A stretch of DNA of 64,000 bases, from NCBI GenBank assembly GCA_963804165.1, contig CAWDPO010000006.1, positions 192,001 through 256,000 on the forward strand, read 5' to 3'. This DNA is from an uncultured delta proteobacterium (GTDB lineage: Bacteria; Desulfobacterota; Binatia; UBA9968). The position numbers and the translations under genes are program-made. The notes beneath the pieces are model-generated. The model saw only the letters and a list, made by a program, of their open reading frames with translations. It had not been told where the DNA came from and ran no database searches. This document shows, piece by piece, positions 6,057-26,797 of the stretch (positions are counted from its first letter, which is position 1; every line of letters starts with the position of its first letter).

Positions 6057-8283
6057 TTACTTTGCGCCGTGCAGTGCCTGATAAATCTTTTCCGCCGTGA
6101 TCGGTAAACTCTTAATTCTCACCCCGCAGGCATCTTCCACTGCGTTGGCAATGGCCGCGGCTGTGGGAATATTGCCGGTCTCGCCGATCGGCATGCTGTC
6201 GTAAGGGCCGGCTCCGTGCGGCTCTTCCGTCACCGAGCCTTTAAAAGCCGGAACATCCTTGATCGTCGGGATCTTGTACTCGCCGAAGTGAGTCGTCGCG
6301 ACTTTACCGTCGTTGATGATCACTTCTTCCATCAGCGTGTAGCCGATGCCCGTCATGCTCGCGCCTTCGATCTGCCCCTGATGCATCAACGGGTTAAGTA
6401 CTGTGCCGGTATTATGCGTCGAAGTGAATTTTTTTAGCTCGACTTGTCCGGTTTCCGGGTCGACTTCCACTTCCGCCACCTGGACACACATGGACGCTGC
6501 GTGAACCTTGGAACTGTCGTTAAAAGTCGCATCGACGGCGATCGGTGCTCCCTTGGCTTTGACAATTTCGCCGTAAGTCATGCGTCGTTCCATGCGCGGA
6601 TGGAGCGCCGCTCCCTTCGCGAGTGTGATTTGATCCGGCGCGGCGCCCATTTGCTCCGCCGCCGATTGCTTGATCGCCTCGACTGCCTTGAGCGCGGCCG
6701 TATAACCGGCGTTACCATAGACCCGCGTCGCCCGGCTGCCGCCGACCCCGGTATCTTTAACGCCCGTTTGCGTATCCAATTGCCGAATCCTGATCTGGCT
6801 CAACGGAATTTTGAGCTCCTCTGCAACGATTTCGCTCAGAACTGTGTAAGTACCCGCACCTTGATCCGCCATCGCGGAGGAAATGGTGGCAATCCCGTTC
6901 TCATCCAGCGAGATCGCCACCGTTCCTATGCCCCCGGCAGGCGTCCATTGCACCAAGGCGACGCCGCGCCCGACATTTTTCGGCTTGGGTCTTCTGGTAG
7001 CCTGAATCATCCAGCGCCTTTTTTAAGGTCTCGTCCGTCTTGATATAGCTGTACTCCTCGCCCGTCGGATCGATATCGCCGTCGTGCATGAAGTTTTTCT
7101 GACGCAGTTTGATCGGGTCCATGCCCAACCGTTTGGCGATCATATCCAACTGGCTCTCATTGGCAAAAAATCCCTGAGGATCGCCGGGTGAGCGCATATG
7201 GCCGCAGGGGATTTTATTGGTGTAGACCATATGTTCTTCGAGAAACACGTGCGGGATCTTGTAAGGTCCGGCCGACAGGTGCGGGCCATTGAGGAAAGCG
7301 TTGGGCTTGAAAGCTCCGTAAGCGCCGCTGTCGAAGATGAAATTCATGTGGTGCGCGACCAAAGTGCCGTCCTTTCTCACGCCGGTTTTAACATGGATGA
7401 TCGAGGCGTGGCGCGGATTGCCGGCGGTGAATTCTTCCTCGTAATCCATCACCAGCTTTACTGGACGGCCGGCTTTTTTGGAAAGAAGATAAACGACGGC
7501 GAGATCCATGAAATCGCCCTTCCCGCCGAAGTCACCACCGATGTAAACGGGATTGAAGTTGAGCTTCTCCTGCGGCAGCTTGAGGGCGTTGGCGACTTGC
7601 TCGCGCACGCCATAGGGGACCTTGCTGCACGACCAGAACTCCGCCGAGCCGTCTGCCGCGGCATTGACCACACAGGAATGAGGTTCGATGTAGCTCTGAT
7701 GAACCACCGGCGTGGTGAACGTATTCTCGACGATAACGTCCGCATGGCGAAAACCGGTTTCGAGATCGCCCTTGCCCCAGGTGACGTAGACAAAATCGTT
7801 GGTAGGCTCCTTCAAGGGTTTGGGTAGGCCCTTGTAGTTGGTGACATCTGGATGAAGTAATTTCGCGCCGGGCTTGAGCGCTTCGACCGGATCGAGCAAC
7901 GGCTCGGTTTCTTCGTATTCGACTTCGATCAGATTGAGCGCCTCTTCGGCGATAAGCTCGTCGTCCGCCGCCACTGCCGCTACCTTTTCGCCGATAAACC
8001 GCACTTCTCCGTCGGCGAGGATCGGCATGTCATAGAGCCGCCGGCCTATTTTCAAACCTGTGCAGTCCTGGCCGGTGACGACCGCGTGCACTCCCGGCAG
8101 CGCTACGGCTTTGCTCGTGTCGATGCGTTTGATCTTTCCCGAGGCGATTGGGCTACGCAGCAACTTCCCCCACAACATGCCCGGCACGGTAATATCAACC
8201 GCGTATTTCGCCGCGCCGCTGACTTTTAGCTCGCCTTCGACTCTTGGGGTTGGATTGCCGACGATTTGTTTCGACGACGCCAT
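6057..8283 (-). CDS. Xanthine dehydrogenase/CoxL family molybdopterin-binding subunit (one frameshift near 7000)
   Basis: ORFs 6901-8307 and 6057-7010 are contiguous halves: GGDFGGK, EVEVDPETG, GQIEG, YKIPT, IGE. Confidence 0.9.
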
Positions 8284-8621
8284 CAGAAGACCTCCTGGTG
8301 CAGACAAATTCTTGGCATTTCTCCGTGTTGCTTGCGCTTTCGCCGCTCCTCGTCATTCTTCCACGCGTTTAGCCATTTCATTCGCGTGCTCGAACGATCG
8401 GTCGAGAGCAAAGAAGAAACTTAAAGGAAGAGCCCCTAGCGCCACGACAAGCTAACGTAAGACAGCCACAAATTCAACAAATCGCGCAACGTGAGGAATC
8501 TTGAGCTGCGTACCCGCGTGTCGATACGCCGCCCCCGGAACTTGATGAAGATTTTCGCGGAATTTATAGGCATTCGTTGCAATGAGGAGCAGGAGCGGTT
8601 TTGCTTTCGGAATGAAAATCT

Positions 8622-10538
8622 TCAACGCGCAAAGGACGATAAACAATCCTGGAATAATTGCAAACTGGCTGCATCGACCTTTTGTCGGGCGATGGGGAAT
8701 CGCTCGCCGGGATCGAGCTTTAAATCGTACGTCGTGACGATATCATCGCGAATACTGAATAGATGTTTGATCGGGTATCTTAAGAGCACAATGTGACCAC
8801 CCCCAAAAGGCTGAACAGACACGACACAACGTTGCCTTGGTGACTCGGAACGTAACTTAGCAGCGTCCAAAAACGACTTTCCGTAAAATTTAGCGTTTGT
8901 TATTCCATACATTTCCAAAATGGTTGGCATAATATCGAGATGGCTATAAAGAGTCGGGACATGTTTCCCAATCGAATACTTCTGTCGATCCGCGACTGAA
9001 GGAATTATCGCCAAGGATGAAACGAAGTTCTCCTGGAACGCCAAGTTTTCGTTGAAGATGTTTCCTTTGTGGATTCCGATCGGCCAGGAATGATCGCCGA
9101 ACACTATGAGCGTGGAATTTGCCGCGTGCTTTTTCAAATAATAGTCTCGAAACATAGAACCAAAATAGTGATCCTGCAAAAAGGTCGTATTAGACAGCTG
9201 CTCCCTTAACGTCGCGGGACTAGGAAATGGCGGCTTCTGGCCAGCTTTCTGCGTGTCCTCAATGCTTTTCTTCTGATGGTCAAATGGAAAATGATTGGTG
9301 GAGGACATCGTAATATACGCGAATATCTTTTGCCGCGAATAATGGTTTTCCAAGTGATCGAAGACTCTGCGATAAAAGATATCTTCCGCGTAACCCCACG
9401 GAAGAAGCTCATCGCCACTCCGTGCAATATCTGCGCTGTGTAGTTCATCAAAGCCAAGCTGTCTGAAAATGACATCCCGTCTACCGAAACTGAAATCGGG
9501 ATAACTTTGATAGTAAAGGGATTTAAATCCGTGTTTACGTAAGACTTCCGGCAAACAGACCAGGCCACTGCTATGTTTCGATGACTGCGTAATACTTTCC
9601 CGCAGGCTAGGTAGAACGGAGCAAAGAATCGTTTCCTGCGCCCGAATTGTCATAACCGCTGATGACTGAATTCTGGGAAATAAGACGCCGTATTGTTCCG
9701 CGATCTGGATCAAATTAGGGGTAATTTGCTTGTTGACCAACTCCGCGTTTAAACTCTCCAGCTGAACCACGATCAAGTTTCGAGTATCCGCGAAAGATGA
9801 AAAAAGCTGATTAACTTTGTTGACCCGAAGTGAATCGTTGAACCAGCGAGTATAGGTCACAACGAGGTCGGACGGCGGAACAAAAAACTGTAAAACAAAT
9901 CTCTTTGGTTCGCTGTCCAAGCATGTCCCCGTGATCGCAAAAATGACCAATCCGGCGAGCAAATGCGCGACTCCAAGGCTCTCACCAAGCTTGATCGCGT
10001 GATTTCGATAGATATTTTCAACACGGTCCCAGAGGTTGAGAACCCCTCTAAAATGAAGCCACAGTAGAAGCATTAGCCCGATTAGCACCAGATAGACATG
10101 CCCGGTAAGTATTTCGAGAGTTCTAAACGCGTCACCGAGGTGATACCATAGGAAGCCAAAATCCAGCGTGAATTGTCGATGGATCCGATACGAAAGTAAG
10201 AGTATTTCTACCAACGAATAAGTCGTGACTAAACCGGCTATGGTGCTCGTGACCGCCCGGCCAAAATTGCCGGCCAATGCGACGGGCAGAAGCCAAAACA
10301 GCACCACAATCGGAGCCACGGCTGCAGTGATTACAGCAACTAAACCGGCTTCCGATCTCATCGTAAATATTTCGGCTACAATTGAAAGAAGGATGATGAG
10401 CGATTGCAAGACAATTGTCACACTAAACGCGGCTCGATCTACTACTTTCAGATTCACTTTGAAAATCTTCCTGCGGATCCCTGACAATCCGTGACTGACG
10501 CGCTTGCATGCGCAAGCAAGTGGAACAGCGTTCAGCAC
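8622..10538 (-). CDS. LTA synthase/sulfatase-like membrane protein (start uncertain)
   Basis: N-terminal TM helices; NLIVVQLES, TNHFPF, FGDH, SHLDIMPTILE; visibly lower GC than flanks. Confidence 0.8.
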   Translation of the reverse strand: MLNAVPLACACKRVSHGLSGIRRKIFKVNLKVVDRAAFSVTIVLQSLIILLSIVAEIFTMRSEAGLVAVITAAVAPIVVLFWLLPVALAGNFGRAVTSTIAGLVTTYSLVEILLLSYRIHRQFTLDFGFLWYHLGDAFRTLEILTGHVYLVLIGLMLLLWLHFRGVLNLWDRVENIYRNHAIKLGESLGVAHLLAGLVIFAITGTCLDSEPKRFVLQFFVPPSDLVVTYTRWFNDSLRVNKVNQLFSSFADTRNLIVVQLESLNAELVNKQITPNLIQIAEQYGVLFPRIQSSAVMTIRAQETILCSVLPSLRESITQSSKHSSGLVCLPEVLRKHGFKSLYYQSYPDFSFGRRDVIFRQLGFDELHSADIARSGDELLPWGYAEDIFYRRVFDHLENHYSRQKIFAYITMSSTNHFPFDHQKKSIEDTQKAGQKPPFPSPATLREQLSNTTFLQDHYFGSMFRDYYLKKHAANSTLIVFGDHSWPIGIHKGNIFNENLAFQENFVSSLAIIPSVADRQKYSIGKHVPTLYSHLDIMPTILEMYGITNAKFYGKSFLDAAKLRSESPRQRCVVSVQPFGGGHIVLLRYPIKHLFSIRDDIVTTYDLKLDPGERFPIARQKVDAASLQLFQDCLSSFAR

Positions 10539-13871: not shown

Positions 13872-15559
13872 GTTCCGTCACATTACTGCTTTCCCCGCTC
13901 TGGCTCGGCTGGAAAAATTCGCTTACTCGCGGCGCCGGGTCTTGGTCGCGCCGCTTGCTGATCATAGCACTTGCCGTCTGTTTTTGGATCGGCACGTATC
14001 TCGTGATCCGGCGCGTCTTGCGCTATTTTGAGACGGTTTATGAGCTCGGGCCGGCGCTGGCTTATCAACTTTTGCTGATCATCCTGCTGACCTTTTTGTC
14101 GATGCTTTTGTTCAGCAATCTGGTTGCCGCGCTTTCGACTTATTTTCTCGCGCGCGATCTGGACTTGGTGCATTCAACACCGGTTTCGCCCGACGGGTTT
14201 TTTTTCGCACGCTTGATTCACACCGCGGTCAATTCGTCGTGGATGGTATTGTTTTTTAGCATCCCCATCTTTGCCGCCTATGGCGCGGTGTTCCGCGGCG
14301 GTTGGAGTCTTTATCTCTGGGTCGCCCTGATCTTGCCGCTGTTTTTGCTCATTCCGGCGGCGATAGGAATTTTGGTCACCCACCTCCTGGTCTATTCTCT
14401 ACCAGCGAAAAGAATCCGCGACGTGCTTTTTTTCATCGGCTTGATCGCCTTCATTGTCATGTATTTTTTGTTTCGCTTTTCCCAACCTGAACGCCTTGTG
14501 CATCCGGAGTCCTTCGGCAATTTCATACAATTTTTGACCGCCATGGAAACGCCTTCGTCGCCGTTTTTGCCGAGCAGCTGGTCGGCGGAGATCTTGGCCG
14601 GAATTCTCTTTAGTCGGGAAACCGAACAGGGCTTTTTCTTCGCTCTGCTCGCCAGCTATGCGCTGTTCTTGCCGCTCGTGGCTTCGTGGGTTTCCGGCGC
14701 GGTCTATTTCGACGGCTGGTCCAAGGCCCAGGAGTCGCGCCAAGGCCGGCGCAATCTTGCATGGTTCGATCGCTTACTCGATCGCCTCGTGCAACTGTTT
14801 CCGCTAACGACCCGCGCGATCATGGTCAAGGACATCAAGACCTTTTTGCGCGACACGACCCAATGGTCGCAGATGTTCCTTCTACTCGCCCTGATCGTCG
14901 TCTATCTGTACAACTTCAAAGTGCTGCCTCTGGACCGTTCGCCGATGCCCGCCGGCGTGCTGCGCACTCTCGTTTCATTTGCCAACTTGGCGCTCGCCGG
15001 ATTTGTGCTCAGCGCCGTCGCCGTTCGCTTCGCCTTCCCCGCCATCAGCCTGGAAGGGAAAGCCTTTTGGATTTTGCAGTGTTCGCCGATCTCCCTGCGC
15101 GCCTTGCTCTGGAGCAAATTCTGGTTGATTTTTATTCCACTGCTGGTGCTCGGCGAACTGCTTGTGTTCTTGAGTAACTTGATGCTTCAAGTGCCGCCCT
15201 GGATGATGACGCTTTCGCTCATCACGGTTTGCCTGATGACGTTCGGCATCGCCGCCATCGGCGTTGGCCTCGGCGCGCTTTATCCGAGCTTCGACTATGA
15301 AAATGCCGCAGAAATCCCGACCAGTTTTGGCGGCGCGGTGGCGATGATTATGAGCATCGGATTCATAGCGGCCGCAGTGGCGATCGAAGCCTGGCCGATC
15401 TACCAACTCGCCATGGCGTCCCTTCACCCCGGGCGAGCCGCAGCACCGACACTCTCGCTCATCGCGCCGTCTTTGATCGCTGTCGCAGCACTGACCTGCG
15501 CGGTGGTAGCGCTTTCATTGCGACTTGGGATACGACGGCTCGAACAGCTAAGAGACTGA
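13868..15559 (+). CDS. Putative ABC exporter permease
   Basis: Multi-TM protein; ATG overlaps the ATPase stop (ATGA); SLEGKAFW motif. Confidence 0.82.
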   Translation: MSSVTLLLSPLWLGWKNSLTRGAGSWSRRLLIIALAVCFWIGTYLVIRRVLRYFETVYELGPALAYQLLLIILLTFLSMLLFSNLVAALSTYFLARDLDLVHSTPVSPDGFFFARLIHTAVNSSWMVLFFSIPIFAAYGAVFRGGWSLYLWVALILPLFLLIPAAIGILVTHLLVYSLPAKRIRDVLFFIGLIAFIVMYFLFRFSQPERLVHPESFGNFIQFLTAMETPSSPFLPSSWSAEILAGILFSRETEQGFFFALLASYALFLPLVASWVSGAVYFDGWSKAQESRQGRRNLAWFDRLLDRLVQLFPLTTRAIMVKDIKTFLRDTTQWSQMFLLLALIVVYLYNFKVLPLDRSPMPAGVLRTLVSFANLALAGFVLSAVAVRFAFPAISLEGKAFWILQCSPISLRALLWSKFWLIFIPLLVLGELLVFLSNLMLQVPPWMMTLSLITVCLMTFGIAAIGVGLGALYPSFDYENAAEIPTSFGGAVAMIMSIGFIAAAVAIEAWPIYQLAMASLHPGRAAAPTLSLIAPSLIAVAALTCAVVALSLRLGIRRLEQLRD

Positions 15560-15580
15560 AGCCATGAACGGAGATTAACC

Positions 15581-16241
15581 GTGCAGCTTGTTCACACGAT
15601 TTATCAACCCGCCGGCGACGGCCCGTTTCCAACGATCCTGACTCTGCACGGACGCGGCGCCAACGCCTTCGACTTGCTCGGACTCGCGCCCTATCTCTGC
15701 GGCGGAAAGTTTCAGATGATTTGCCCGCAAGGACCGTTGGAAACACCGATCGGTCCCGAGGCCGTCGGCTACGCGTGGTACCCCATGAGCATGGGCGGAC
15801 CGCCGGACGTGGATGCCATTCTGTCTTCGCAAAAAAAACTGCGGGTCGTTCTCGACGAGTGCGTGAAATCCTATCCCATCGACGTCAAGAAGCTTGCGCT
15901 GCTCGGCTTTAGCCAAGGCGGTGTAATGGCGTATGGCCTCGCTCTGTCAGATCCCGGCCGCTTCGCTGCTCTTGCCGTCTTGAGCAGCTGGCTGCCGAAA
16001 GAATTGTTGTCGCAAATCAGCGTGAGCGATGCGGTCCGCTCGCTGCCTACGCTGGTACAGCACGGCACGCAGGATTCGACCATCGAATTAGCGCGTGCGC
16101 GAACTTCAGTAGAAACACTGCGGCAATTTCAAATGCCGCTAGTTTATAAGGAATACGAAATGGGCCACGAAATCAGGCCGAGAAGCCTGTCCGAATTGTC
16201 GACGTGGGCTAAATGATACCGTACTGAAAACGGGGGGTTAG
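15581..16241 (+). CDS. Phospholipase/carboxylesterase (alpha/beta hydrolase); integration target of the element
   Basis: LHGRG, GFSQGG, HGTQD, MGHEI. As read it ends TWAK* at 16216; removing one G gives WLNDTVLKTGG* ending at 16241. Confidence 0.88.
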
Positions 16242-16260
16242 CACATAACCCTCCGTTTTT
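16227..16260. terminator. Intrinsic terminator, possibly bidirectional
   Basis: AAAACGGGGGGTTA-GCACA-TAACCCTCCGTTTTT hairpin with A/T tracts on both sides. Confidence 0.7.
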
Positions 16261-16288
16261 ATTTACCTTTCCGCCGATACCTCGAAAA

Positions 16289-16408
16289 ACTCATTAGGAC
16301 TGATTAGGACTCATTAAGACTGATTTGTTTTGAAACGGCTTTGAAACGTGCGTAGCTCAAAAGCCGTTGCCGCTTATGGCCGAGAAGTAGCCCATCGACC
16401 GTTTCAAA
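16289..16408. repeat. 10-bp tandem repeat (x3.7) plus three TTTGAAACG boxes
   Basis: ACTCATTAGG ACTGATTAGG ACTCATTAAG ACTGATT; TTTGAAACG at 16329 and 16340, inverted at 16400-16408. Confidence 0.7.
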
Positions 16409-16578
16409 CGTCTCACCGCGACCGCCGGTCAAGCGGACCCGCCTATTTGACCCGCTTGAACAACACGCCGAGCTTTGATAATAAAATTTTTGCCTAAAAA
16501 GCCGCAGTCGGATGGGGGCGGGCGTCACATCCGGCTGAAATAAGTCTCCCCGGGCAGGTTCCCGCCGATTGCCGGTCG

Positions 16579-16677
16579 AGCCACAAACCTTAGAAAAAAG
16601 GCCGTAACCTCGGTTCACATGTGCTCCGCATGGAGCACTTCCGAAGGTTCGCCTCTGGGGTTTGTGGCTTTTTTTTT
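16579..16677 (+). ncRNA. Putative structured RNA or attenuator (long rod-like hairpin plus U-tract)
   Basis: AGCCACAAACCTTAGA/TCTGGGGTTTGTGGCT, AACCT/AGGTT, GTGCTCC/GGAGCAC nested stems, then T9. Confidence 0.5.
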
Positions 16678-16700
16678 GGGCAAAACCAAGGAGGGAATTT

Positions 16701-16946
16701 GTGGCAAGAAGGAATCGCGGATTAAAAATGGCGCTCTTGGAACGCTGGAGACAATCAAGGCGATGCCGCCGCCGCGTTGAAAATTAAATTATCGTCTTCT
16801 GTCTCGATTGGTGTCGGGTCAGAAACGACCGTCCAAATCGGAGCGGCAGAAGCTCGCGAATAGTGCTCGGCGCTAAACGAGTCAACGAATTGTTCGCCGA
16901 CCGCGAGCTGCCGAAGAAATCAATTGAGCGAAACAAGCGAATCTGA
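16701..16946 (+). CDS. Cro/XRE-like HTH protein (frameshifted, absent from ORF track)
   Basis: GGAGG RBS plus GTG; stitched reading MARRNRGLKMALLERW..QGDAAAALKINYRLLSRLVSGQKRPSKSERQKLA.VLGAKRVNELF. Confidence 0.65.
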
Positions 16947-17119
16947 GCGAGCCGTCCGGTCAGATTGAGCGATGAACGAGAGCGAGCCGGTACTCTTGAT
17001 TGAGCGCGAGAAAAGAGCGAGCCGTTGCTGCCGATTGAACGTTCTCGCGGAGCGAGCCGAGTCCGAAGATAGAGCACGAACCATGAGCGAGCCGAAGTAA
17101 GCGATTGAGCGTAAATTGG
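16945..17119 (+). repeat. Dual-repeat/dual-spacer array, 5 x 35 bp, TIGR-like
   Basis: GAGCGAGCCG at 16945, 16980, 17015, 17050, 17085; each followed by N8, GATTGAGCG (variants GATTGAACG, GATAGAGCA) and N8; all ten spacers differ. Confidence 0.9.
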
Positions 17120-17141
17120 ACGATGGGAAGGGAACAAATTT

Positions 17142-17339
17142 ATGAGTGAATGTGAAAGCTGCGGAAAAGAAACAACAGTCCAAGTTTATACCGTCCCCAC
17201 GAATGGATGGCTCCGACGCGAGACAGCGGCGCTTACCACTGCGATATGGTGCGAATCATGCGCAGAGAAAAACAAGAATTTCATCATCACGGACAAAGAA
17301 ATGCGGTTGCTTGCCGCCTCGCAACGAAGTCGACGATGA
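17142..17339 (+). CDS. Small zinc-finger protein
   Basis: 65 aa, CESC...CESC; starts 23 nt after the array. Confidence 0.55.
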   Translation: MSECESCGKETTVQVYTVPTNGWLRRETAALTTAIWCESCAEKNKNFIITDKEMRLLAASQRSRR

Positions 17340-17675
17340 GGACGCGGACTAAGTCCGGCAGAGAAAAGCGGAACATAGACGGCGCTGAAACCATCGGAGA
17401 CCTGTTCGAAATTATGCGCACGTCGGCTTATGACATCAGATAGGCAGTCGAGATGACATTACGTATCATCGTCGACGACTGGCGCGCCGATGAATTCGAG
17501 AACGTGCTGCTCTCCGCGATTGGGATACTTGACCGGCCTAAAACACTGCACACAGATACACAGACTCACAAGACACCCAGGAGGAAACACAAGAATTCCC
17601 CGGCGACCGCCGTTCGAAGAGTGAACTGCTTGCGTTTGCGCTCTTGATTGTACTAAACGGACAAGAACTCGAACA

Positions 17676-18185
17676 TGGACGCGGCGCGCATTTGGCAATT
17701 TATATCGGGAATCAACTGGTGATTCGCTGTCGACGTATTCGCCGCGCTGTTGACGCCTACCATCGCGATAATCACGGTGTATATCGCGTATCAGCAGTGG
17801 AGAGTGAACAAGACGCGGCTCGACCTTGACCTCTACGACCGCCGCTTGTCGATATACAAGGCGTTGGAGGAATTCTACTCCGAATCTTTTGCAAGCGGCT
17901 CTATTAACTATCCGATGGCCGGAAAACTGCGCACCGCGACCGCTGAAGCGCGATTTCTCTTTCCCAGCGAAATCGAAACGTTCCTGGATACGTTACACAA
18001 GAAGTCACTCAGGGTGGCGGGATTGCGTCAACTACTCGACCCAATTTCTGCAATAGCCGGGATTGCCCGTTGGCGACCGGCGCAGTAGAGCGGTCGACGA
18101 AGCGTCAGAATTACTTACTGACATCCAAGAGCAACTCCGAGAGGAAAGTAAGACATTGTTCCGTAAGTATCTAACCCTCGCCTAG
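17676..18185 (+). CDS. Hypothetical membrane protein (frameshifted; boundaries approximate)
   Basis: LTPTIAIITVYIAYQQW...LDLYDRRLSIY...EARFLF pattern of a mobile-element hypothetical family. Confidence 0.55.
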
Positions 18186-18218
18186 CTGGGACCGCAAAAG
18201 AAACCTTGATGCAAAACG

Positions 18219-19112
18219 GTGGCAGATATATTGTCTGGTGACGGAATTAAATTGCTTGGTGACATCGCCGCGCTGTTGTGCGATGCAACCCCGCTACGTA
18301 ATTTGAATTCACCATATGACGCAGTGCATTTTATGGGCAGTCCCCACTATTGTTTTCCCGAATTGCCGCTTGAAAAAAAACGCCTTCAGTCCCGAGTTCT
18401 TGAAGATTACAACAACTTTCTTGCTATCGCCCGTGCTCTTTTAAGGAAGCAACCGGACGCCGTCCGGGTCGAAATCGACGGTTGCGACAAGACCCTTCGT
18501 GAAATTATCGAGCAAGAGCGCGTCTGGCACGCCACGTCGGAGGAAGCCTTAATCGCGGCCACTTCCGCCATCAATGGAATTCTAACGGCGCTTTCGTCTC
18601 TTTACGATTCGAATGAAGGTTCAGTCGTGCTAGTGCCAGACACTAACGCTTTAATTACACAATCGCCGGTAATTCAGAAGTGGCGCTTCAATGACTTCCC
18701 AGAATTCGAAATCCTGCTCGTTCCAACAATCCTGTCAGAGCTGGACAAGCTGAAAATCGAACACCGCAATCCTGCTGTTCGGAAAAAGGCGCAAAGCATC
18801 ATTCGTCAGGTAAAAGAGTACCGGGTGTCGCGGACCACTCTCCGAAGGAGTAACCGTTGTGGCGAATCATATCAGCCTCCGCTCCATCGCGCATGAACCG
18901 CAGGTCAAAGACGCACTACCGTGGCTGGATGCAGATTCGCGAGACGACCGAATTCTAGCCTCATTCGTGGAAGCAATGCGTGCCCATCCTCGTTCAGTCG
19001 TCGCATTGGGTAACGGTGAGATCCCGCCATCAACCTCCAGAACAAAGCCGAGTTCGCCCGAAACGCCTACATTGAGCCGCCCGACCCGCCAGAATCCAAG
19101 GAAACGCGCTAA
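18219..19112 (+). CDS. PIN-domain protein (frameshifted)
   Basis: VLVPDTNAL, VPTILSELDKLK, DDRILAS, NLQNKA spread over several frames. Confidence 0.75.
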
Positions 19113-20020
19113 ACTTGCCCCCGGAATCGTTGCTTTAATTCTATCCGTCAATTGCGTTCTCAAATCCGCTGGTTCTTTCCAGACGATGTGGTTGTATTGG
19201 CGGGTGTCGAAATGAACCGTTCTTTAAGTCGTCCTGGTGACATGACCAAATCACGGGTCGCCCCAAGCCCATAGCGAAGCCTGCTTCGAAATAAACGCCA
19301 GCGCGTTGCAGCGCTGACATCGGCAACGAGAAATTGGCAGGTCCGAATTTCGGCGATGATTTTATCGCAGATTTTTTCGTTGTGATGCTTCTTGTCTATT
19401 CTTACCGCATCCATTTTGCAGTCTATTTTTACCGCTGATTCAATTCCGTTAGTGAACGCGTCATTCATGGATGGGTCGAACGACATAGCGACAAAACATT
19501 TGCCAGGAATGCCGGAAACCGTCGAAGACTGTATTTTCTCCCATCCTTTTGGCTTCACTGTGTATGACCAATTGCCGACGCGCGTCACATATTCAATTTC
19601 GACCAAATTTTCCAACATCCAAGAAAGTTCCTGCCCCCTCGCGGCGTCGACCAGCGCCGGGTCCGTCTTGTCGTCAAACTTCACGGGGAGACCAGGTTTA
19701 GCACGTGCCGCCATTAATTCGAGAAGCCTTTCCAACCTTCTCGCTACGGGGATGTTCTCATGGGATTGCGCGTAAGCTTTCCAATTGTCATCGTCTAGAA
19801 CCACTTCTTCGCCGCGTTCTGATGATTGGCGCGTGTGCGCCGATAGATATGGCAATAGGTCTTTTGTCTCCGCCGTTATACTGTCAGGGCGCAGGGTAGT
19901 GTCGTAAAAACGTCTCGCAATTCTAAAATTTCCACACCCTGCGCACTCTACCCGTGCGTTAACATCTTGGAATAAGCGAGCCTCTCGATTACAAAGCGGG
20001 CATTCATTTGCGGGAAACAT
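19109..20020 (-). CDS. Zn-ribbon/winged-helix protein with C-terminal nucleoside 2-deoxyribosyltransferase-like (TIR-like) domain (frameshifted; 3' end approximate)
   Basis: CPLC..CAGCG; CFVAMSF, ICDKIIAEIR..FLVAD, GVYFEAGFAMGLGRPVI, HFDTRQYNHI. Confidence 0.75.
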
Positions 20021-20158
20021 TTCTAACAAGACCTCCCGGTATCCGAAATATCGCAATAGGTTTTGGAAGAATTCGAGGACATTTCAGGGACTTTTGTCGT
20101 GCACTTTGGATAGCGACACCAACATGACCGCGTGGGACCGACAAACACAGAAATCTCG

Positions 20159-20848
20159 CTAGCCAAAACGCGACATATAGGTCACAAAGAGCAAAACCAT
20201 GAGAATCATTATCCACACGAGCGTTCTGTGCATCGATTGCAACGCGCCCTTTAGTTCATCCAAGCTAGATGCAACTTGATTAATCTGTGCTCGTGAGGGT
20301 CGCACGCTGTCCTCCGCGTTCCTAGCATCGAGCAAATCGTGAGGGTCACCACCGATTATCGGGACATAGAACTTTATCGATGCAATCGGAAGTTGTGGAG
20401 CGCTTTTGTTGTCCCATATCTTCCCGCTACCATCCGGCTGCCAGTCATAACTCATGCCTGCTACTTTGATTGAAATTCCTGAGGGTAATCGGCCCTGACT
20501 CACTGCGGCAAGCAGAGCATCAAAGCGCCGCCGCGGAATTTGCACATCGAGCGTATAGCTCGCCCTAATATGATACCCTTCGAGTAGTGATTCGCTTTCC
20601 TTGCAGTAGTAGAAAACGCCAATTGGCTTATCGTCATCATCTTTCTCGCCTGTATCCACCAGTCTAAAAATGCCCTCCAGTTTTTCAAAATCTTCTTCGG
20701 TTGACAGTTTCATTGATTCCCGACTCTTTAGTTTCATCTCGCCGACTAAAACGATTTTCTCGTCTTCGCCTTTTTCAACATCCACGAGCAACCGAATTGT
20801 TGTCGGAACCAAATCGAGAATTACTGTGCGGCCAATCACGTCTGTCAT
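20159..20848 (-). CDS. Hypothetical protein with C-terminal TM helix
   Basis: 229 aa ORF, hydrophobic C-terminus. Confidence 0.6.
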   Translation of the reverse strand: MTDVIGRTVILDLVPTTIRLLVDVEKGEDEKIVLVGEMKLKSRESMKLSTEEDFEKLEGIFRLVDTGEKDDDDKPIGVFYYCKESESLLEGYHIRASYTLDVQIPRRRFDALLAAVSQGRLPSGISIKVAGMSYDWQPDGSGKIWDNKSAPQLPIASIKFYVPIIGGDPHDLLDARNAEDSVRPSRAQINQVASSLDELKGALQSMHRTLVWIMILMVLLFVTYMSRFG

Positions 20849-20861
20849 CGTTCGGCTTTCG

Positions 20862-21389
20862 CTACATGTGTGGCGATTGGTATAACTTCTCCAAAATATG
20901 CCTTGCGCCCCTTTCCGCCGCTTCAGTCGGTGAACCCTTTATCAAATCCATGTCCGCTGCCGAAAAATTGAAATTGTCTTGATGAGTAAGAATAAACCAA
21001 CCACGATAAGCGAGAAACAAGGGCGACGTACACCCCGTAAGCTTTTGATACATCACCTCCGCGTCGAAAATTAAATACTCTGTTTGCGTTGGGAAGAAAT
21101 TGAAACTCGCGTCTGCGTCCCTGTCTGCGTGTTTAAAAAAATTTTCTGCGGCATTTAGCGCTTTGCTGACTGCTTTTTGAAATTCTGGCTTAGCGTGTTG
21201 CACCGATAAATCTTTGACAATCATTGCGCCAAGCTTCTTCTTTTTCACGATATCTCGTATCACGTTGTAACTTGCCGCTGCGAGTGTATGAATTGATATC
21301 TCATCGCCTTCGAGGAAATAGAGACGTATGGCTGTCTCTAACTGCCGTTTTGCGGCGTCAAGTTTTGTAATTTCTATGCCCGCTGTCAT
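20862..21389 (-). CDS. Conserved hypothetical protein
   Basis: ITKLDAAKRQLETAIRLYF..IHTLAAA..NFFKHADRD pattern seen in mobile-region hypotheticals. Confidence 0.7.
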   Translation of the reverse strand: MTAGIEITKLDAAKRQLETAIRLYFLEGDEISIHTLAAASYNVIRDIVKKKKLGAMIVKDLSVQHAKPEFQKAVSKALNAAENFFKHADRDADASFNFFPTQTEYLIFDAEVMYQKLTGCTSPLFLAYRGWFILTHQDNFNFSAADMDLIKGSPTEAAERGARHILEKLYQSPHM

Positions 21390-21510
21390 AAGTTATCGGT
21401 CGATGAAGCCGAAGGAACCAAGAAGCGAAAACCGCGATTCCTCATGCTCGTAGTTTTTCTATTCTCAAGCCACCAAAAACCTGTGAGCGGAACTAGGAGA
21501 AGAAGCCCGT

Positions 21511-21888
21511 TCATCGACGATATGGAATATCCTGACCGTCCATGGTCATCTCCTTTGCCGTAAGGGCCGTCTTGTATCGCAGGCGGATAATGGAAACAAC
21601 CGGAGCCGGGGCCGCTCTCTGAGGGGGTCCAAACGATTCGCTCAATTGCATCAAACTGGCGATGAACGGTGGACCTCCATGACCTGGTCTTTTTTTGGAA
21701 TGAACTGCGGCGAGCCGTTTGCAGATCTCGCAGGGCTCGGTAGACCAATGCGCGCTGCCGCCGTTCGTATGCTGGACGACGAAAACATCACGGATATTCC
21801 GTCGCACGAAGGGTTCGCGTTCCTTCAGGAACCGGGTTGCCAGCATGCGGCTGAAATTCTTACCGTGTGACCGGAGGGCCATCGTCAA
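21511..21888 (-). CDS. Hypothetical phage-type protein
   Basis: Start overlaps the upstream stop in a co-directional run; no motif recognised. Confidence 0.35.
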   Translation of the reverse strand: MTMALRSHGKNFSRMLATRFLKEREPFVRRNIRDVFVVQHTNGGSAHWSTEPCEICKRLAAVHSKKRPGHGGPPFIASLMQLSESFGPPQRAAPAPVVSIIRLRYKTALTAKEMTMDGQDIPYRR

Positions 21889-22088
21889 TCCCGCACGATG
21901 CGGCGCGTCCTGGACTTGAACGTCGACGATTTCTTTAGCGACCGCGCCATAGACTCAAGGAACTGCTCGCGCTTCTGCCCACAGTTCACGGCTTCCTCCC
22001 GGTCGCTGAACCACCGCCAACCGTCAGCCGAGTAGACGCGCATGGGCTGACCGTGAACAACTATTTCCCGCTCGCGAAATTTGCTCAT
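21885..22088 (-). CDS. Small hypothetical phage-type protein
   Basis: MSKFREREIVVHGQPMRVYSADG..., ATGA-coupled to upstream ORF. Confidence 0.45.
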   Translation of the reverse strand: MSKFREREIVVHGQPMRVYSADGWRWFSDREEAVNCGQKREQFLESMARSLKKSSTFKSRTRRIVRD

Positions 22089-22422
22089 CGTCGTCTCGAT
22101 TCTGCCGCCGGAACTGCCGCCATCGGGGTGAGGGACGACGACAGCCCGGCAGGCGTTCCGACCAAAAACCATGCGCGGCGAGCGCACGGCGACGACGGCG
22201 CATGGAACGCCGTTGGCCGGAATTCCCCGATTGCGAAAGTGGTCGCAACCGGGAAATCGGGAAAAGTTTTCGCCAGAATCCGCCGCGTAAGTCGGTGAAC
22301 CTTCACGGCGGTCTGGCGTCTCCCCGTGTCCGCACAATTCCACGGAACTCTCGTGGGCGTCGATTTTCTCTGCGGTTGCGAATCGAGACCGCATCGACGC
22401 ACAGACCCGAGGGAAACCGAAT

Positions 22423-23049
22423 TCATTTGTAGTAGCAATAAATCTTGTCGAGCTCGTCGCCGTACTCTCGCGCAGCCAAGATGCACTCCCCGAATGCTTT
22501 GACATCCGAATCCTCGTCGATGCCCCGTTGCTCGGCGAGTTTCTTGCCGCGACAGTAGAAGCGATTCTCGCCGCAGCGCTTGCAGCGCGTATCGTCGGCG
22601 GCGTATTCCCCCCGCTCGACAGCGCCAGCGACCGCCGGAATCAGCAAGGCGAGCAAATCCCAATCGCTGTCCGCGATGAACCCGTCCGTCGCCGCTCGCG
22701 CTAAACTCGGGTTCGCGCTTCGAACGTTAGCGAGGGCTCGCTTGTATTCGTCGACCGGAAACGCGACGCCGGGGCCGACGTTCTGAAGTTTCCGCCGAGC
22801 GAGACTGTCAAGGACCGAACGGGCGAGCGTTCGAACCTTGTCGAGGTCGGCGAGAAGGCCGGCCATCGCTTGTTGGGCCGGGGACAGCGTCTCGTACGAT
22901 TTCACTACGGCGATGTCGCCGAACGTGTACTGCATCACTAATTCAGGATTCTCCGCGCACGCTCGGCGAAAGGCGGTTCGGTAATCGCCGCCGTAGTTGC
23001 ACGCCTTGGCGTCTAGCTCGCTCTGTGCGTTTTTTTGAATTGTGTTCAC
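22423..23049 (-). CDS. Hypothetical phage-type protein
   Basis: 208 aa ORF in operon downstream of terminase. Confidence 0.55.
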   Translation of the reverse strand: MNTIQKNAQSELDAKACNYGGDYRTAFRRACAENPELVMQYTFGDIAVVKSYETLSPAQQAMAGLLADLDKVRTLARSVLDSLARRKLQNVGPGVAFPVDEYKRALANVRSANPSLARAATDGFIADSDWDLLALLIPAVAGAVERGEYAADDTRCKRCGENRFYCRGKKLAEQRGIDEDSDVKAFGECILAAREYGDELDKIYCYYK

Positions 23050-23075
23050 GTCGTGCTCTTCCCTTCTGTCGGTTT

Positions 23076-23735
23076 TTAACCGACCGCTTCGATAGTCTCC
23101 GTTAGTGCGCCGGTCGTCGTCGATTCGGACCCCGCAACAGCGTCCTTTGCGACAGCGTCCTTTGCGACCGGCATCTGCCGATTGGCGTTCGCGACGATTC
23201 CGGTGAGGAGTTCGTCGTACGGCTGCTTGTAGGCGCGGTCCGCCGAATGCCCGCCGTGGAAAATCGCCGTAATCCGGCGCTCGAGGTGCACCAGGCGGAA
23301 CTGCGCCTGCGCGCCGTGGGTTTCGGTATACGCCTTCATGCGGTTCAATCGCACCGAGTGCAGCGCGGCGCGAGCCGTCAAGGCCAAGACCATCTGCTCG
23401 ATGTCTTTCGCCTCGGCGAGTGCTCCTTCCACGTCGGCGTCGTACTTCGCGCGGTCTTCGAGGGCGTGGGCTCGCTCGCGTTCGGCGAATAAATCCTCGA
23501 TATCGACGCCCGCTTGATTCACGCGGATTTCCAATCGCACGCGGTCGCGGTCGAGTTTGAAAAGCTCCGCGTCTATCCTATCGAGCGTCGGTTCGTCCGC
23601 ACCGTTCCTGACCTTTTCTTCGTAGCCGCCCTTCATCCGCACCAGATTCGTCTCGGTCTCGGCGAGCTGGGTTTTCAAGTCGGCCTGTTTTTTTTTCGCC
23701 TCGTCCAGCTTCTTTTCAACTTCCTGCACTTCCAT
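23076..23735 (-). CDS. Coiled-coil protein
   Basis: 219 aa, E/K/A/L heptad-rich; purine-rich RBS. Confidence 0.7.
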   Translation of the reverse strand: MEVQEVEKKLDEAKKKQADLKTQLAETETNLVRMKGGYEEKVRNGADEPTLDRIDAELFKLDRDRVRLEIRVNQAGVDIEDLFAERERAHALEDRAKYDADVEGALAEAKDIEQMVLALTARAALHSVRLNRMKAYTETHGAQAQFRLVHLERRITAIFHGGHSADRAYKQPYDELLTGIVANANRQMPVAKDAVAKDAVAGSESTTTGALTETIEAVG

Positions 23736-23789
23736 GCTTTTCCCCCTTTGTTGGTTTCGGTTTCGGAAAAATGAATTTCACGACGATTC

Positions 23790-23942
23790 TCATCGGTACA
23801 CGCGCCATGCCTTTCTGCGCCGCATCGGAGGTTTCGGAACTGCTCCACGGTCGCGCTGTCTTGCGAGTGTCTTGTCCGCGCACAGCTGGCAATACCGACT
23901 ACGGGGTGACGCCTTTCTCCCGCAACTCGATGCGCATCTCAT
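23790..23942 (-). CDS. Small Cys-rich protein (50 aa)
   Basis: MRCASSCGRKASPRSRYCQLCADK...; ATG overlaps terminase stop. Confidence 0.4.
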   Translation of the reverse strand: MRCASSCGRKASPRSRYCQLCADKTLARQRDRGAVPKPPMRRRKAWRVYR

Positions 23943-25486
23943 AAATCCCAAAATCCCCGACCGGAGCGAGAGCGGTCGATAAGGACGTGCACGTCATCGG
24001 TCGGCGCGCCTTGGTCGAGCCATCCCACTCCGGCGTTGACCGTTCGTTCGGGCGTGAATTGGTTCATGCGCAAGAATTCCTCGGCATCGAACGAATCGCC
24101 GCCCAAGACACTGGCAAGGCGGGCAACCACCGCCGCGTAGTCGTCGTGCTCGTTGTTGGCATGGTCAATCCGCATCCCGCGCCACAGCAAGCCGAGAAAC
24201 TGATTCTGCAAATCCGCGTTGTCCAGGAGAACGATTTGACCGCTGTTCAACCGGGGTCCGAAGGCCTCGTAAGTCTGATGGGTCGTTAGTTCGGACAACA
24301 CGGCCGAGATGCCGTGCTGCGCGAACGCCGCCTGGAACGTGTTGTGCGCGAATCTATCGACCGTGACGGTGCCGATGCGGTACGGCTTGGCGGTAGCGGC
24401 GAACAAGCCGACCGTTTTCAACGGGTCGAACGGCGTGCCGCATTGCTGGTTGATTATCAAGTCGAGAATGACGCGGTCGTCCTAGTCGAGGTGGCCTACG
24501 GCTAACGTCGCGTCGTCGTTGCTGCCGTCCGACATATCGACGGCTGCGGCATAATCGATGCCGGATACGGGCGGACGGACTTTGATGCCGACGGCGATGC
24601 TGTTGAGGATGCTTTCGGCTGCGAACGCTGCGCCTTGCGGTTGTCCGCCGACGTTCTCGTGCAAACGGCGGAAGAGATGGCCGGGCAAGCGCAACCGCTG
24701 CTGTTCTATGTACTCGTTGAAACCGTTGACGAACGGCAAGGACGGGTTCGCTCGCTCGACCCCGGTCGGCTTGCTGGCGAATTCCGGGTCGGTGCAATAA
24801 TCGGATGCGTACCAGCTGAAATAGAAACGCTTGTCGGTGCCGGCCTTCCCGCGTGCGACATAGTCGAACATCGGGACGCCGGGACGCCGTAATAGCGTGT
24901 CGTAGGATTCGAACCACTGGATGGCGTCGGTTCGATGCGGGTCAAGCGCAAGGCCTTCGAGCAAGGCGTAGTCGCGCTGGGTCTGGAGTTCGTTGACGTG
25001 CAAGAACAGATAAGACTTGCCGTGCTGCCCGAAGATGTCGCGACCGGAGAGGATGCGCAAATCGCCGTTGCCGTCCTTGCGGTAGACGCCGTCGGTCTTG
25101 ATGCTGAGCCGTTTCGAGAGTTCGGGATTCTTGCGGATGAATTTCTTGAGCAAGTCGAGAGCTTCGTTCGCCTGCTCAACGTCGAACGAAACGACGCGGC
25201 AGTCGTTGCCGGTCGTCGTGCGCCACGCCATCAAGCGGTGCAGCCCGGCAAATAAACCGTCGAACGTCTTCCAGCACTTCTTGCCGCGACCGGTGAGCAC
25301 GTTGTTGTACTGCGGGCGGTCTTGCTCGTCGTCCCACGTGTCGATTGCTGCGCTCAAAGTGCGCTGCCGGTAGGGCTCTATCGTTTCGAGCAACGGACGG
25401 CCGTCGAGCCAGTAGAGCGAACGGGCGAACGTCAGGACGGGAATCTGACGCGGCTTGCGGGCGGTGCTATTTGCGGTTGTGGTCAT
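23939..25486 (-). CDS. terL: Terminase large subunit (frameshift near 24482)
   Basis: Variant Walker A GRGKKCWKT, Walker B-like LHVNE, nuclease AAVDMSDGSNDDAT, TVDRF, DH..NEHDD. Confidence 0.8.
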
Positions 25487-25776
25487 TTGCCGTCTGAGAT
25501 GTTCGCTTCGGTCGCCTGCTCGCGCTCCCACGGCGCAAGGTCTATCGTTCGCGCCTGCCGTTCGAGTCCGAGGCGCATCAAGTTGGCGACGATGCGTGTC
25601 TGAATCGGAGCGATGTAGGCGTCAATTTTTGAGAGTGCCGCGATGTTTTTACGGACACTCGGCTTGGTTTCCAAAATCTCGTCGCGGCATTCGTACAGGT
25701 CGTTCAGGGTTTGCTTGTCGCGCTTGAGGTGGTCGATGATTTCCAACTTCTGCGCGGTCAAGACTTCCTTGCCGGG
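25483..25776 (-). CDS. Putative terminase small subunit-like protein, 5'-truncated at the element boundary
   Basis: GKEVLTAQKLEIID...RLGLERQAR; stop overlaps terL start; frame is open only up to the right repeat. Confidence 0.5.
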   Translation of the reverse strand, partial: PGKEVLTAQKLEIIDHLKRDKQTLNDLYECRDEILETKPSVRKNIAALSKIDAYIAPIQTRIVANLMRLGLERQARTIDLAPWEREQATEANISDGK

Positions 25777-25861
25777 CTAGAAGAGAACGTAATGAAGACG
25801 GGGGCTAGCCTATAGCCTGACATTACCGTCACAGCCCTGCGACGGTCGTTGAAATAAAAAA

Positions 25862-25887
25862 AGGGGCGACCAGCCGGTCGCCCCTAC
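25862..25887. repeat. GTAG-type REP palindrome / terminator
   Basis: AGGGGCGACCAGCCGGTCGCCCCTAC preceded by an A-tract, downstream of htpX. Confidence 0.8.
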
Positions 25888-25918
25888 AAGAATAATCGTG
25901 TTAATGCTTCGGGACCTC

Positions 25919-26797
25919 TTACGTGCGCATGTAGCTCAGATCTTTTGCCATCGCTTCGAGCCGGGCAATGCGCTCTTCCATCGGCGGATGAGTGCTGAAT
26001 AGCTTAGCCAAGCCGCCGACCGTCAGCGGATTAACGATAAACATATGTGCCGTCGAGTTGGCAGTCGCATCGCTTACCTGGAGCGGGATATTCTGCGCGC
26101 CCATTTCCAGCTTGCGCAGCGCGCTTGCCAGCGCCAGCGGATCGCCGCTGACCTTGGCGCCGCCTTCGTCAGCCATATATTCGCGCGAGCGCGACACGGC
26201 CATTTGAATCAACATTGCCGCCATCGGCGCCACGATCATCATGAACAGCAAGCTGAAAATATTGCTGCCGCCTTCTTCGCGGTCGCGGCTGCCGCCGCCG
26301 AAGATCGCGGCCCACTGCGCCATATACGCTAGGTAGCTGATCGCGCCTGCGAGCGTCGCCGCGATGCTACTGATGAGAATATCGCGGTGTTTGACGTGGC
26401 TAAGCTCGTGGCCCAAAACACCGGAGAGCTCGCGTTTGTTGAGAATGCGCCGGATACCTTGAGTGACGGCCACGGCCGCATGTTCGGGATTGCGCCCTGT
26501 CGCGAACGCGTTCGGGGTTTCCTCCGGAATGATGTAAACCTTCGGCATCGGCAAACCCGCTCTGACGGTGAGATCGCGAACGATGCCATAGAGCTCCGGA
26601 TCGTCGTTTGCGGTAATTTCTTGCGCGCCGTACATCTTGAGAACAATCTTGTCGCTGAACCAGTAACTGAAAAAGTTCATGGCGCCGGCCATGATTAGAG
26701 CGAGAACGGCTCCGTTCGGACCGCCGACCATGTGGCCGATCCAGACGACGAGCGCCGTTAACGCTGCCAGGAGAATCGTGGTTCGAAAGCCGTTCAT
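25919..26797 (-). CDS. htpX: Zinc metalloprotease HtpX
   Basis: [27 protein letters not shown]. Confidence 0.95.

Follow-up and report, generated by a model that had tools for sequence, protein, structure and literature searches.

Architecture of the array

The stretch of DNA analysed here, 64 kb in length and called the window below, carries a five-unit array of two alternating short repeats. The array begins ∼700 bp from the left end of an island that is foreign to its surroundings. An initial annotation, made from the sequence, had proposed that it belongs to the TIGR type; TIGR-Tas systems were published in 2025 (Faure et al. 2025, PMC12045711). The coordinates of the array and of the main features of the island are given in Table 1.

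Table 1. Features of the array and of the island in which it lies.
Feature	Position	Strand	Basis or remarks
Foreign island, ∼9.6 kb	16205..25816	.	Direct repeats, low GC, near-empty site in relatives
Degenerate sixth unit, leader-proximal	16903..16944	+	Sequence reading, 1-mismatch loop match
Five-unit dual-repeat array	16945..17119	+	Exact repeats, constant 35-nt period
Edge repeat GAGCGAGCCG (10 nt)	Starts 16945, 16980, 17015, 17050, 17085	+	Exact copies
Loop repeat (9 nt)	Starts 16963, 16998, 17033, 17068, 17103	+	Alternates with edge repeat
First ORF after array, 65 aa, CxxC...CxxC	17142..17339	+	Starts 22 nt after last spacer
PIN_4 protein	18219..19215	+	Match to profile positions 1-63 of 132
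298-aa ORF	19160..20056	-	N-terminal CxxC pairs; C-terminal half matches phrog_16139 (E 1e-12)
Terminase large subunit, split	23939..25531	-	phrog_9, E 5.4e-10; in-frame TAG 24479-24481

Each unit consists of the edge repeat (10 nt), spacer A (8 nt), the loop repeat (9 nt) and spacer B (8 nt), in that order and with putative boundaries. The five units are in exact phase with a 35-nt period and the edge repeat is identical in 5/5 of them, both as initially described. Over the five copies 50/50 nucleotides of the edge repeat are perfect. Exact copies of GAGCGAGCCG occur five times in the window, always within the array and always on the + strand. When up to one mismatch was allowed, the search returned 20 matches, 15 of which were one-mismatch copies scattered over the window (shuffles gave a mean of 11.2). 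Three units (1, 2 and 5) have the loop repeat GATTGAGCG, while unit 3 has GATTGAACG and unit 4 has GATAGAGCA; the loops vary no more than those of working arrays do. Ten spacers of 8 nt were read out as previously listed, and no two are alike. The CG-N8-GA frame reported around most of them has one exception on each side: CG precedes 9/10 spacers, spacer B of unit 4 being preceded by CA, and GA comes after 9/10, the final spacer being followed by AC.

Units 1-4 are bounded by an edge repeat on both sides and unit 5 has no closing edge. From position 17120 onward the sequence begins with ACGATGGG and reaches an ATG at 17142. On the upstream side of the array lies a degenerate sixth unit, made up of the edge-like GCGAGCTGCCG (16903-16913), AAGAAATC, AATTGAGCG (16922-16930), which is the loop repeat with one mismatch, and a 14-nt leader-like tail (16931-16944).

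In a scan of the 7.5-Mb genome for 8-mers that recur ≥4 times with a constant spacing of 30-44 nt, overall identity at the same spacing having to be <80%, the array was the sole match (1/1). The exact edge-N8-loop pair has no second occurrence in the genome. Tandem Repeats Finder did not report the array, as is expected because only 19/35 positions are conserved. An Rfam search (E≤1) matched tRNA alone, and the array was assigned to no Rfam family. The array RNA is predicted to fold less well than shuffled sequences (z +2.0 and +2.75 on the two strands). The + strand is probably the sense strand, since GAGCGAGCCG sits on the tas coding strand in the Tas-linked viral loci described below.

The host island and its decay

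The GC content of the island is 49-52%, compared with 55-60% in the flanks. The flanking genes are present in 30/30 genus relatives. Both flanks lie on one contig in 25/30 relatives, with ≤138 bp between them in 21 and 1.1-1.7 kb in four, and on separate contigs in 5/30. Because the site is empty or near-empty in the 25 readable relatives, the window carries an insert of ∼9.6 kb; one of the 25, G005, is flagged as unpublished, and the claim of an empty site holds without it. An imperfect direct repeat of ∼45 nt (16205-16249 and 25773-25816, ∼33/45 identical) bounds the island. It copies the 3' end plus terminator of an alpha/beta-hydrolase gene. The right copy is closer than the left one to the native hydrolase 3' end of the relatives, as expected if the element entered the hydrolase 3' end and brought a replacement end with it. 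A 10-bp tandem repeat, ACTCATTAGG, is present in 3.7 copies at 16289-16325 in the left end of the island. In two relatives, G012:C79 and G024:C100, the corresponding chromosomal site has similar sequence and carries inserts of 1.5-1.7 kb, so the site may be a common hotspot of integration, or the repeats may be arm-type sites of related elements.

The initial annotation had placed the array in a phage-derived element, and the terminase large-subunit gene in the island bears this out. A single in-frame TAG, read directly, splits this gene into ORFs of 349 aa and 173 aa, both of which match one 520-aa ORF in a metagenome contig (L330) with 47% and 38% identity. Either a nonsense mutation or a recoded stop would account for the TAG. 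Searches of the viral contigs and of cultured phage records with the terminase returned no relatives. A paralogous stretch with 69% identity is present at G000:C3:6262-7439.

A run of ORFs on the + strand, co-oriented with the array, extends from 17142 to 19215. The first of these has a weak match to a treble-clef zinc finger (E 6e-4, below the cutoff) and no similarity to the Tas profile. The PIN_4 gene is probably frameshifted or truncated; the ORF that follows it, in the +1 frame, has a PIN-like acidic motif. ESM Atlas gave leads for two ORFs just downstream of the array, a PIN_4 protein (score 0.94) and a family of short hypothetical proteins. The tail of the 298-aa ORF looks out of frame. 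Most of the island ORFs have no family assignment; integrase, capsid and portal families were not recognised among them, nor was ParB, Rep or any further DNA-binding family. PADLOC returned two marginal matches only. Upstream of the array, a scan for sigma-70-type promoters, the consensus of which may not be that of the host, gave no + strand match. The island is a decayed phage-derived element.

Comparison with TIGR arrays

Dual-repeat TIGR arrays are described as two alternating repeats of 8-12 nt with spacers of 8-12 nt (usually 9) and a unit of ∼36 nt (PMC12045711), and TIGRFinder is stated to allow spacers of 8-10 nt (10.64898/2026.09.09.750476). In the window array the two repeats measure 10 and 9 nt, both spacers 8 nt, and the unit 35 nt (n = 5). 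CRISPR was dismissed on spacer length, in agreement with the initial annotation: the repeats are 9-10 nt and the spacers 8 nt, against repeats of 23-50 nt and spacers of similar size in CRISPR.

Box C/D motifs are reported to covary between edge and loop repeats, both of which are bound by a symmetric Tas dimer (PMC12045711). In the window array GA starts 10/10 repeats and CG ends 9/10. The edge repeat is GA...CCG in 5/5 units, and the loop repeat starts with GA in 5/5 and ends with CG in 4/5 (unit 4 ends with CA). These GA/CG ends are unlike the UG/CCA motifs of TasR arrays. Published dual-repeat arrays are said to form no extended duplexes (PMC12045711), and for this reason the weak folding of the array RNA fits them. 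The 3' end of the array does not follow the published pattern. A closing truncated edge repeat with a terminator is given as the typical, though not obligatory, arrangement (PMC12045711), but in the window neither does a closing edge repeat follow position 17119 nor does a terminator separate the array from the ATG at 17142. The edge-like start of the degenerate unit lies at the opposite end.

Arrays with the same edge repeat on viral contigs

Viral contigs were scanned for two copies of GAGCGAGCCG 23-28 nt apart. At least 168 stretches were found, most of them with long arrays of 36-nt period. In well over 100 viral-contig arrays the edge repeat is the same 10-nt GAGCGAGCCG, mostly in units of 36 nt. 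Among the matches listed for viral and genome contigs there are at least 699 distinct 36-nt units with the consensus GAGCGAGCCG-N8-GAGAGtaCCG-N8, together with smaller sets of units with periods of 34, 35, 37 and 38 nt. The unit of 35 nt had been thought 1 nt short of the usual, and it is, relative to the 36 nt of most relatives (range 34-38 nt). The matches in genome contigs are mostly coding or plain tandem repeats (L023, L063, L072, L105); L051, L067 and L099 are real arrays.

The arrays have a neighbour protein of 270-400 aa, encoded on the same strand and usually ≤130 nt from an array. An HMM of this protein matched in 64/75 array-bearing viral loci among those listed and in none of the other 11; the 75 are viral loci of ≥4 kb with an array, and they overlap, so contigs are counted more than once. 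An alignment of 24 neighbour proteins was compared with the PDB, where it matched 9mty_A (E 2.3e-24), the TasH structure 21kl_A (E 8.1e-13), and the IS621 transposase (E 1.9e-7). The 9MTY entry is the model of the TasR RNP published by Faure et al. 2025. The neighbour proteins align to the Nop part alone of TasR and TasH, and a Pfam nuclease domain was absent from the one protein tested. On these two grounds the neighbour proteins are probably TasA-like. Operons of tasParB and tasA with arrays of 10-nt repeats have been described (PMC12045711), and the description fits the GAGCGAGCCG family. The distance from array to tas varies. Among the distinct arrays in the Tas-bearing viral loci listed, 75/115 lie ≤300 nt from tas and 40/115 farther away, with 14/115 at >2 kb and up to 9 kb.

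The ends of edge and loop repeats covary in the relatives, being CCG/CCG in the 36-nt family, CCG/GCG in L156 and L340, and CCA/TCA in L099. In L156, which is Tas-linked, the loop GATGTGCG ends in GCG and the period is 34 nt.

The closest arrays

The closest relative of the window array is found at L340, on the viral contig IMGVR_UViG_3300032954_000524 (loci L260, L340 and L341). It has four 10-8-9-8 units with the loop GAAYCNGCG, and it starts 20 nt after the gene of a 359-aa Tas (HMM E 1.4e-111). This Tas was outside the HMM training set and shows that the pipeline detects an unseen Tas. Window positions 16930-17030 align with L340 4819-4922 over 106 nt (71.7% identity, E 1.4e-9), in register and across the leader and first units; the similarity of the leaders covers window positions 16930-16944. 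Besides the similar leader the two arrays have in common the edge repeat, the 10-8-9-8 layout and a loop that ends in GCG. The first spacer B of L340 contains ATGAACGA in the same register, identical to spacer B1 of the window. The L340 contig differs in having tas 20 nt upstream, in its loop sequence (the window has GATTGAGCG), and in its remaining spacers, which are unlike those of the window. Its array ends in a truncated edge repeat and a T-run, whereas the window array does not, and the contig and the island share no other gene. In a search of the viral contigs for the 35-nt geometry the L340 contig was the sole match (1/1), so the 35-nt variant is rare. The window spacers were also compared with 133 viral array regions and gave 13 matches, compared with 4.5 ± 3.6 for shuffled spacers. 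Most of the matches overlap repeats, and the L260/L340 match alone is in register.

The exact edge-N8-loop pair was found in one viral and 23 metagenome stretches, all of them single and chance-like with the exception of L320. L320 is a metagenome contig of 4,973 bp (Ga0214473_10048570) with a three-unit array. Like the window array, it has the GAGCGAGCCG edge, a GATTGAGCG-type loop with the GATTGAACG variant in the third unit, and a 35-nt period, and it stops just before the start of a gene. No Tas is encoded on it, as in the window, but at only 5 kb it may not extend as far as tas. The array lies among phage replication genes; its flanking genes differ from those of the window and encode endonuclease VII, a replication initiator and DnaB; its spacers are only partly alike to the window spacers. 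One of the single matches, at L330 5478-5504 on the - strand, overlaps a hairpin and may be due to chance. The terminase on that contig, 47% identical to that of the island, lies at 7605-9167 on the - strand, 2.1 kb from the repeat match.

The edge repeat of the window array is thus letter for letter that of Tas-linked viral arrays, and the alignment with L340 is in register. The proposed TIGR-type identity is supported by these observations, by the unit length, which falls in the 34-38 nt range of the family, and by the 10-8-9-8 layout beside the L340 Tas. The comparisons support the view that the repeats are a genuine dual-repeat TIGR array, putatively of the nuclease-less TasA type.

Search for a Tas effector

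No Nop- or IS110-like ORF had been recognised in the element initially, and HMM searches, profile-profile comparison and tblastn also failed to find a Tas in it. The Tas HMM was run against 81,932 six-frame ORFs of the genome, for which the best E was 0.79, and against all segments of ≥15 aa at window positions 15000-26000, where it matched nothing. When 22 ORFs of the island were compared with the Tas profile by hhalign, all had a probability of <1%. When the Tas alignment was searched against the genome, no match was obtained even at E≤10, and tblastn with the L340 Tas reached no E below 1.1. A complete TIGR-Tas system has Tas beside or near the array, and none is present in the island, the window or the assembled genome, which is 81% complete, so a tas gene could sit in the unassembled part.

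A search of 123 genomes of the order likewise turned up no Tas. Weak matches to the HMM were obtained in seven of them (best E 1.7e-6) from multi-copy ORFs of ∼260-360 aa. These are probably IS110 elements, because the match covers mostly profile positions 28-134, the stretch that cross-matches IS110-family transposases in the PDB. The repeat pattern is absent from the other genomes of the order, bar one chance-like single pair in G120. Three fates had been suggested for the missing effector. That it was deleted or left behind fits best, that it acts in trans stays a candidate, and that it is an unrecognised protein of the island found no support.

Spacer targets

In TIGR-Tas systems spacers A and B are reported to pair with opposite strands of one DNA site, and the transcript is cut within the edge repeats (PMC12045711). 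The reported 3' overhangs imply a target in which spacer A is followed by spacer B in reverse complement; this layout and its converse were searched for, allowing a gap of 0-2. In the genome there were 0 exact and five one-mismatch targets, with ∼5 expected by chance. In 1.95 Mb of viral and metagenome loci there were five targets at ≤1 mismatch, compared with ∼1.3 expected, and one of the five lies inside a TIGR loop. The match counts in the genome, the window and the viral and metagenome loci are at chance level only. Spacer pairs of 16 nt are too short for informative searches of large databases.

Origin and possible use of the array

This kind of array is already known, and the GAGCGAGCCG family is abundant on viral contigs. 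With the TasA and tasParB-tasA arrays of TIGR-Tas systems, as described in PMC12045711 and 10.64898/2026.09.09.750476, the window array shares two repeats and two short spacers, common start and end motifs of the repeats, an unstructured RNA and a viral origin. It differs from them in having no tas in the locus or the assembled genome, a unit of 35 rather than 36 nt in which the loop has 9 nt and each spacer 8 nt, and no closing edge or terminator. It also lies in the chromosome of a bacterium with a 7.5-Mb genome, whereas CPR bacteria are given as the only known non-viral hosts of such arrays (10.64898/2026.09.09.750476). According to the same source nearly all known TIGR-Tas systems come from metagenomic viral contigs or CPR bacteria, and little is known of their natural targets and hosts. 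The published array finders, as described, start from tas genes, so effector-less arrays lie outside their search. In the available text of PMC12045711 and 10.64898/2026.09.09.750476, and in a literature search for 'TIGR array' together with 'orphan', no mention of orphan TIGR arrays was found.

Guides without effector genes are familiar from orphan CRISPR arrays and viral mini-CRISPR arrays, which are relics or are used in trans. These have one long spacer where the window array has two 8-nt spacers, and their repeat architecture, effector family and guide logic are different.

The window array is, in our judgement, probably left over from a TasA-type TIGR phage, as a satellite array that is now stranded and stays inert as long as no related phage provides Tas. 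A phage-derived element would have integrated at the 3' end of the alpha/beta-hydrolase gene, bringing the array with it, and would then have decayed. We infer both this history of loss and the present inactivity. The array would have survived in the remaining fragment, with tas having lain in the part now lost. An origin as a satellite array is the most likely one because many arrays in related phages sit kilobases from tas. In the working system each unit would give a ∼35-nt tigRNA in which spacer A, the loop and spacer B lie, in this order, between the 3' half of one edge repeat and the 5' half of the next. A Tas dimer would bind both repeats at their ends, where GA is box-D-like and CG box-C-like. 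TasA is described as a guide-dependent repressor that blocks transcription and does not cut (10.64898/2026.09.09.750476). Without Tas the array would be inert, and it would become readable if a related phage supplied the cognate Tas.

Several observations count against a TIGR relic. One is that the array itself is without decay, having perfect edge repeats and loops like those of working arrays. Another is the lack of the closing truncated edge repeat or terminator that is typical of published arrays. The array may also well be transcribed, as it is co-oriented with the + strand ORFs, lies 22 nt before them and is followed by no terminator. L320 is a second array with the same repeats and no Tas, so separation from tas may be a regular feature of this subtype. 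Finally, with the genome 81% complete, tas might be present in its unassembled part.

The main alternative, a working orphan array that acts in trans, is rather unlikely. The resident element would transcribe the array, and the TasA of an incoming or co-resident related phage would process the transcript and load the guides, so that the phage's own RNA-guided DNA binder was redirected, for example toward superinfection exclusion or helper exploitation. Such a role agrees with the perfect edge repeats and the four complete units, with a probable co-transcription with the downstream ORFs, and with L320 as a second Tas-less contig that has the same repeat pair. Guide RNAs act in trans by nature, and 40/115 of the arrays listed are >300 nt from tas. 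A guide-dependent repressor such as TasA (10.64898/2026.09.09.750476) would suit it as well. Against it stand the lack of Tas in the 123 genomes of the order, where the weak multi-copy matches are probably IS110 transposases, the chance-level counts of spacer-pair targets in the genome and the 1.95 Mb of loci, and the gene decay in the island. L320, moreover, is just 5 kb long and its tas may lie off the contig. It is unlikely that the array is a chromosomal guide-only cassette, borne by the element, that turns the TasA of an incoming phage against the invader or a competitor, and that has been kept since it works without an effector of its own. Such a cassette would be the TIGR counterpart of viral mini-CRISPR arrays.

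The array immediately precedes an ORF start, from which no terminator separates it, and an effector for an RNA role is lacking. These features would also be consistent with a function as DNA, namely as phased protein-binding sites (operator, iteron or centromere-like) before the operon at 17142. TasA arrays with 10-nt repeats are in fact sometimes reported in operons with ParB-like DNA binders (PMC12045711). We nevertheless regard this as quite improbable: RNA arrays linked to Tas have the identical repeat, a spacing of 35 nt does not correspond to an integral number of helical turns, variable 8-nt blocks are characteristic of guides rather than operators, and the ORFs of the island include no ParB, Rep or other DNA-binding family. 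As most island ORFs have no family assignment, one of them might encode an effector that is unrelated in sequence to Tas and uses the array. This seems very improbable to us, given that 22/22 ORFs scored <1% against the Tas profile, that the two ORFs downstream resemble PIN_4 (0.94) and a family of short hypothetical proteins and are not Nop-like, and that in the relatives listed the partner of the array is always of the Tas family. There is, finally, hardly any chance that the repeats are accidental or coding. ORFs do overlap the array on both strands, one of them a 117-aa ORF on the - strand (16784-17137) of which the repeats could be a part, but this ORF has no Pfam or PHROG match. The 35-nt period is not a multiple of 3, which the initial annotation had rightly held against a coding repeat, and conservation falls in blocks of 10/8/9/8, also in comparison with L320 and L340, with no codon periodicity. 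Five exact 10-mers in phase cannot arise by chance.

The locus places the TIGR family with the GAGCGAGCCG edge in an integrated phage remnant of a bacterium with a large genome, and in this way provides a link to a host. If the array is a relic, it shows that arrays can outlive their effector. The locus also contributes a 35-nt variant that is rare, and raises a question about guide-only arrays that can be tested. If the array were used in trans, this would be a new layer in phage-phage and phage-host conflict, and the first guide-only parasitism or defence in TIGR systems. If it is not, it is a dated fossil for studying how TIGR arrays decay.

Other arrays of the GAGCGAGCCG family

Several further arrays were observed in the course of the comparison. 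A viral array at L148 350-1059 (+) has the loops GATAGAAKCG, which are close to the unit 4 loop of the window, GATAGAGCA. A non-repeat stretch of ∼300 nt interrupts this array, which has a truncated edge repeat with a terminator at its end. The L148 locus, which is 7 kb long and begins at a contig end, contains no Tas. L128-L130 and L135, all from one viral contig of 119.5 kb, contain many mini-arrays of 2-4 units with the GAGCGAGCCG edge, spread over >15 kb around a single tas gene. L099, a genome contig of 882 nt, carries a long array of 34-nt period in which most edges end in CCA and the loops in TCA (GATGTTCA). With the CCG/GCG ends found elsewhere, it is a natural example of covariation between edge and loop ends within the GAGCGAGCCG repeat family.
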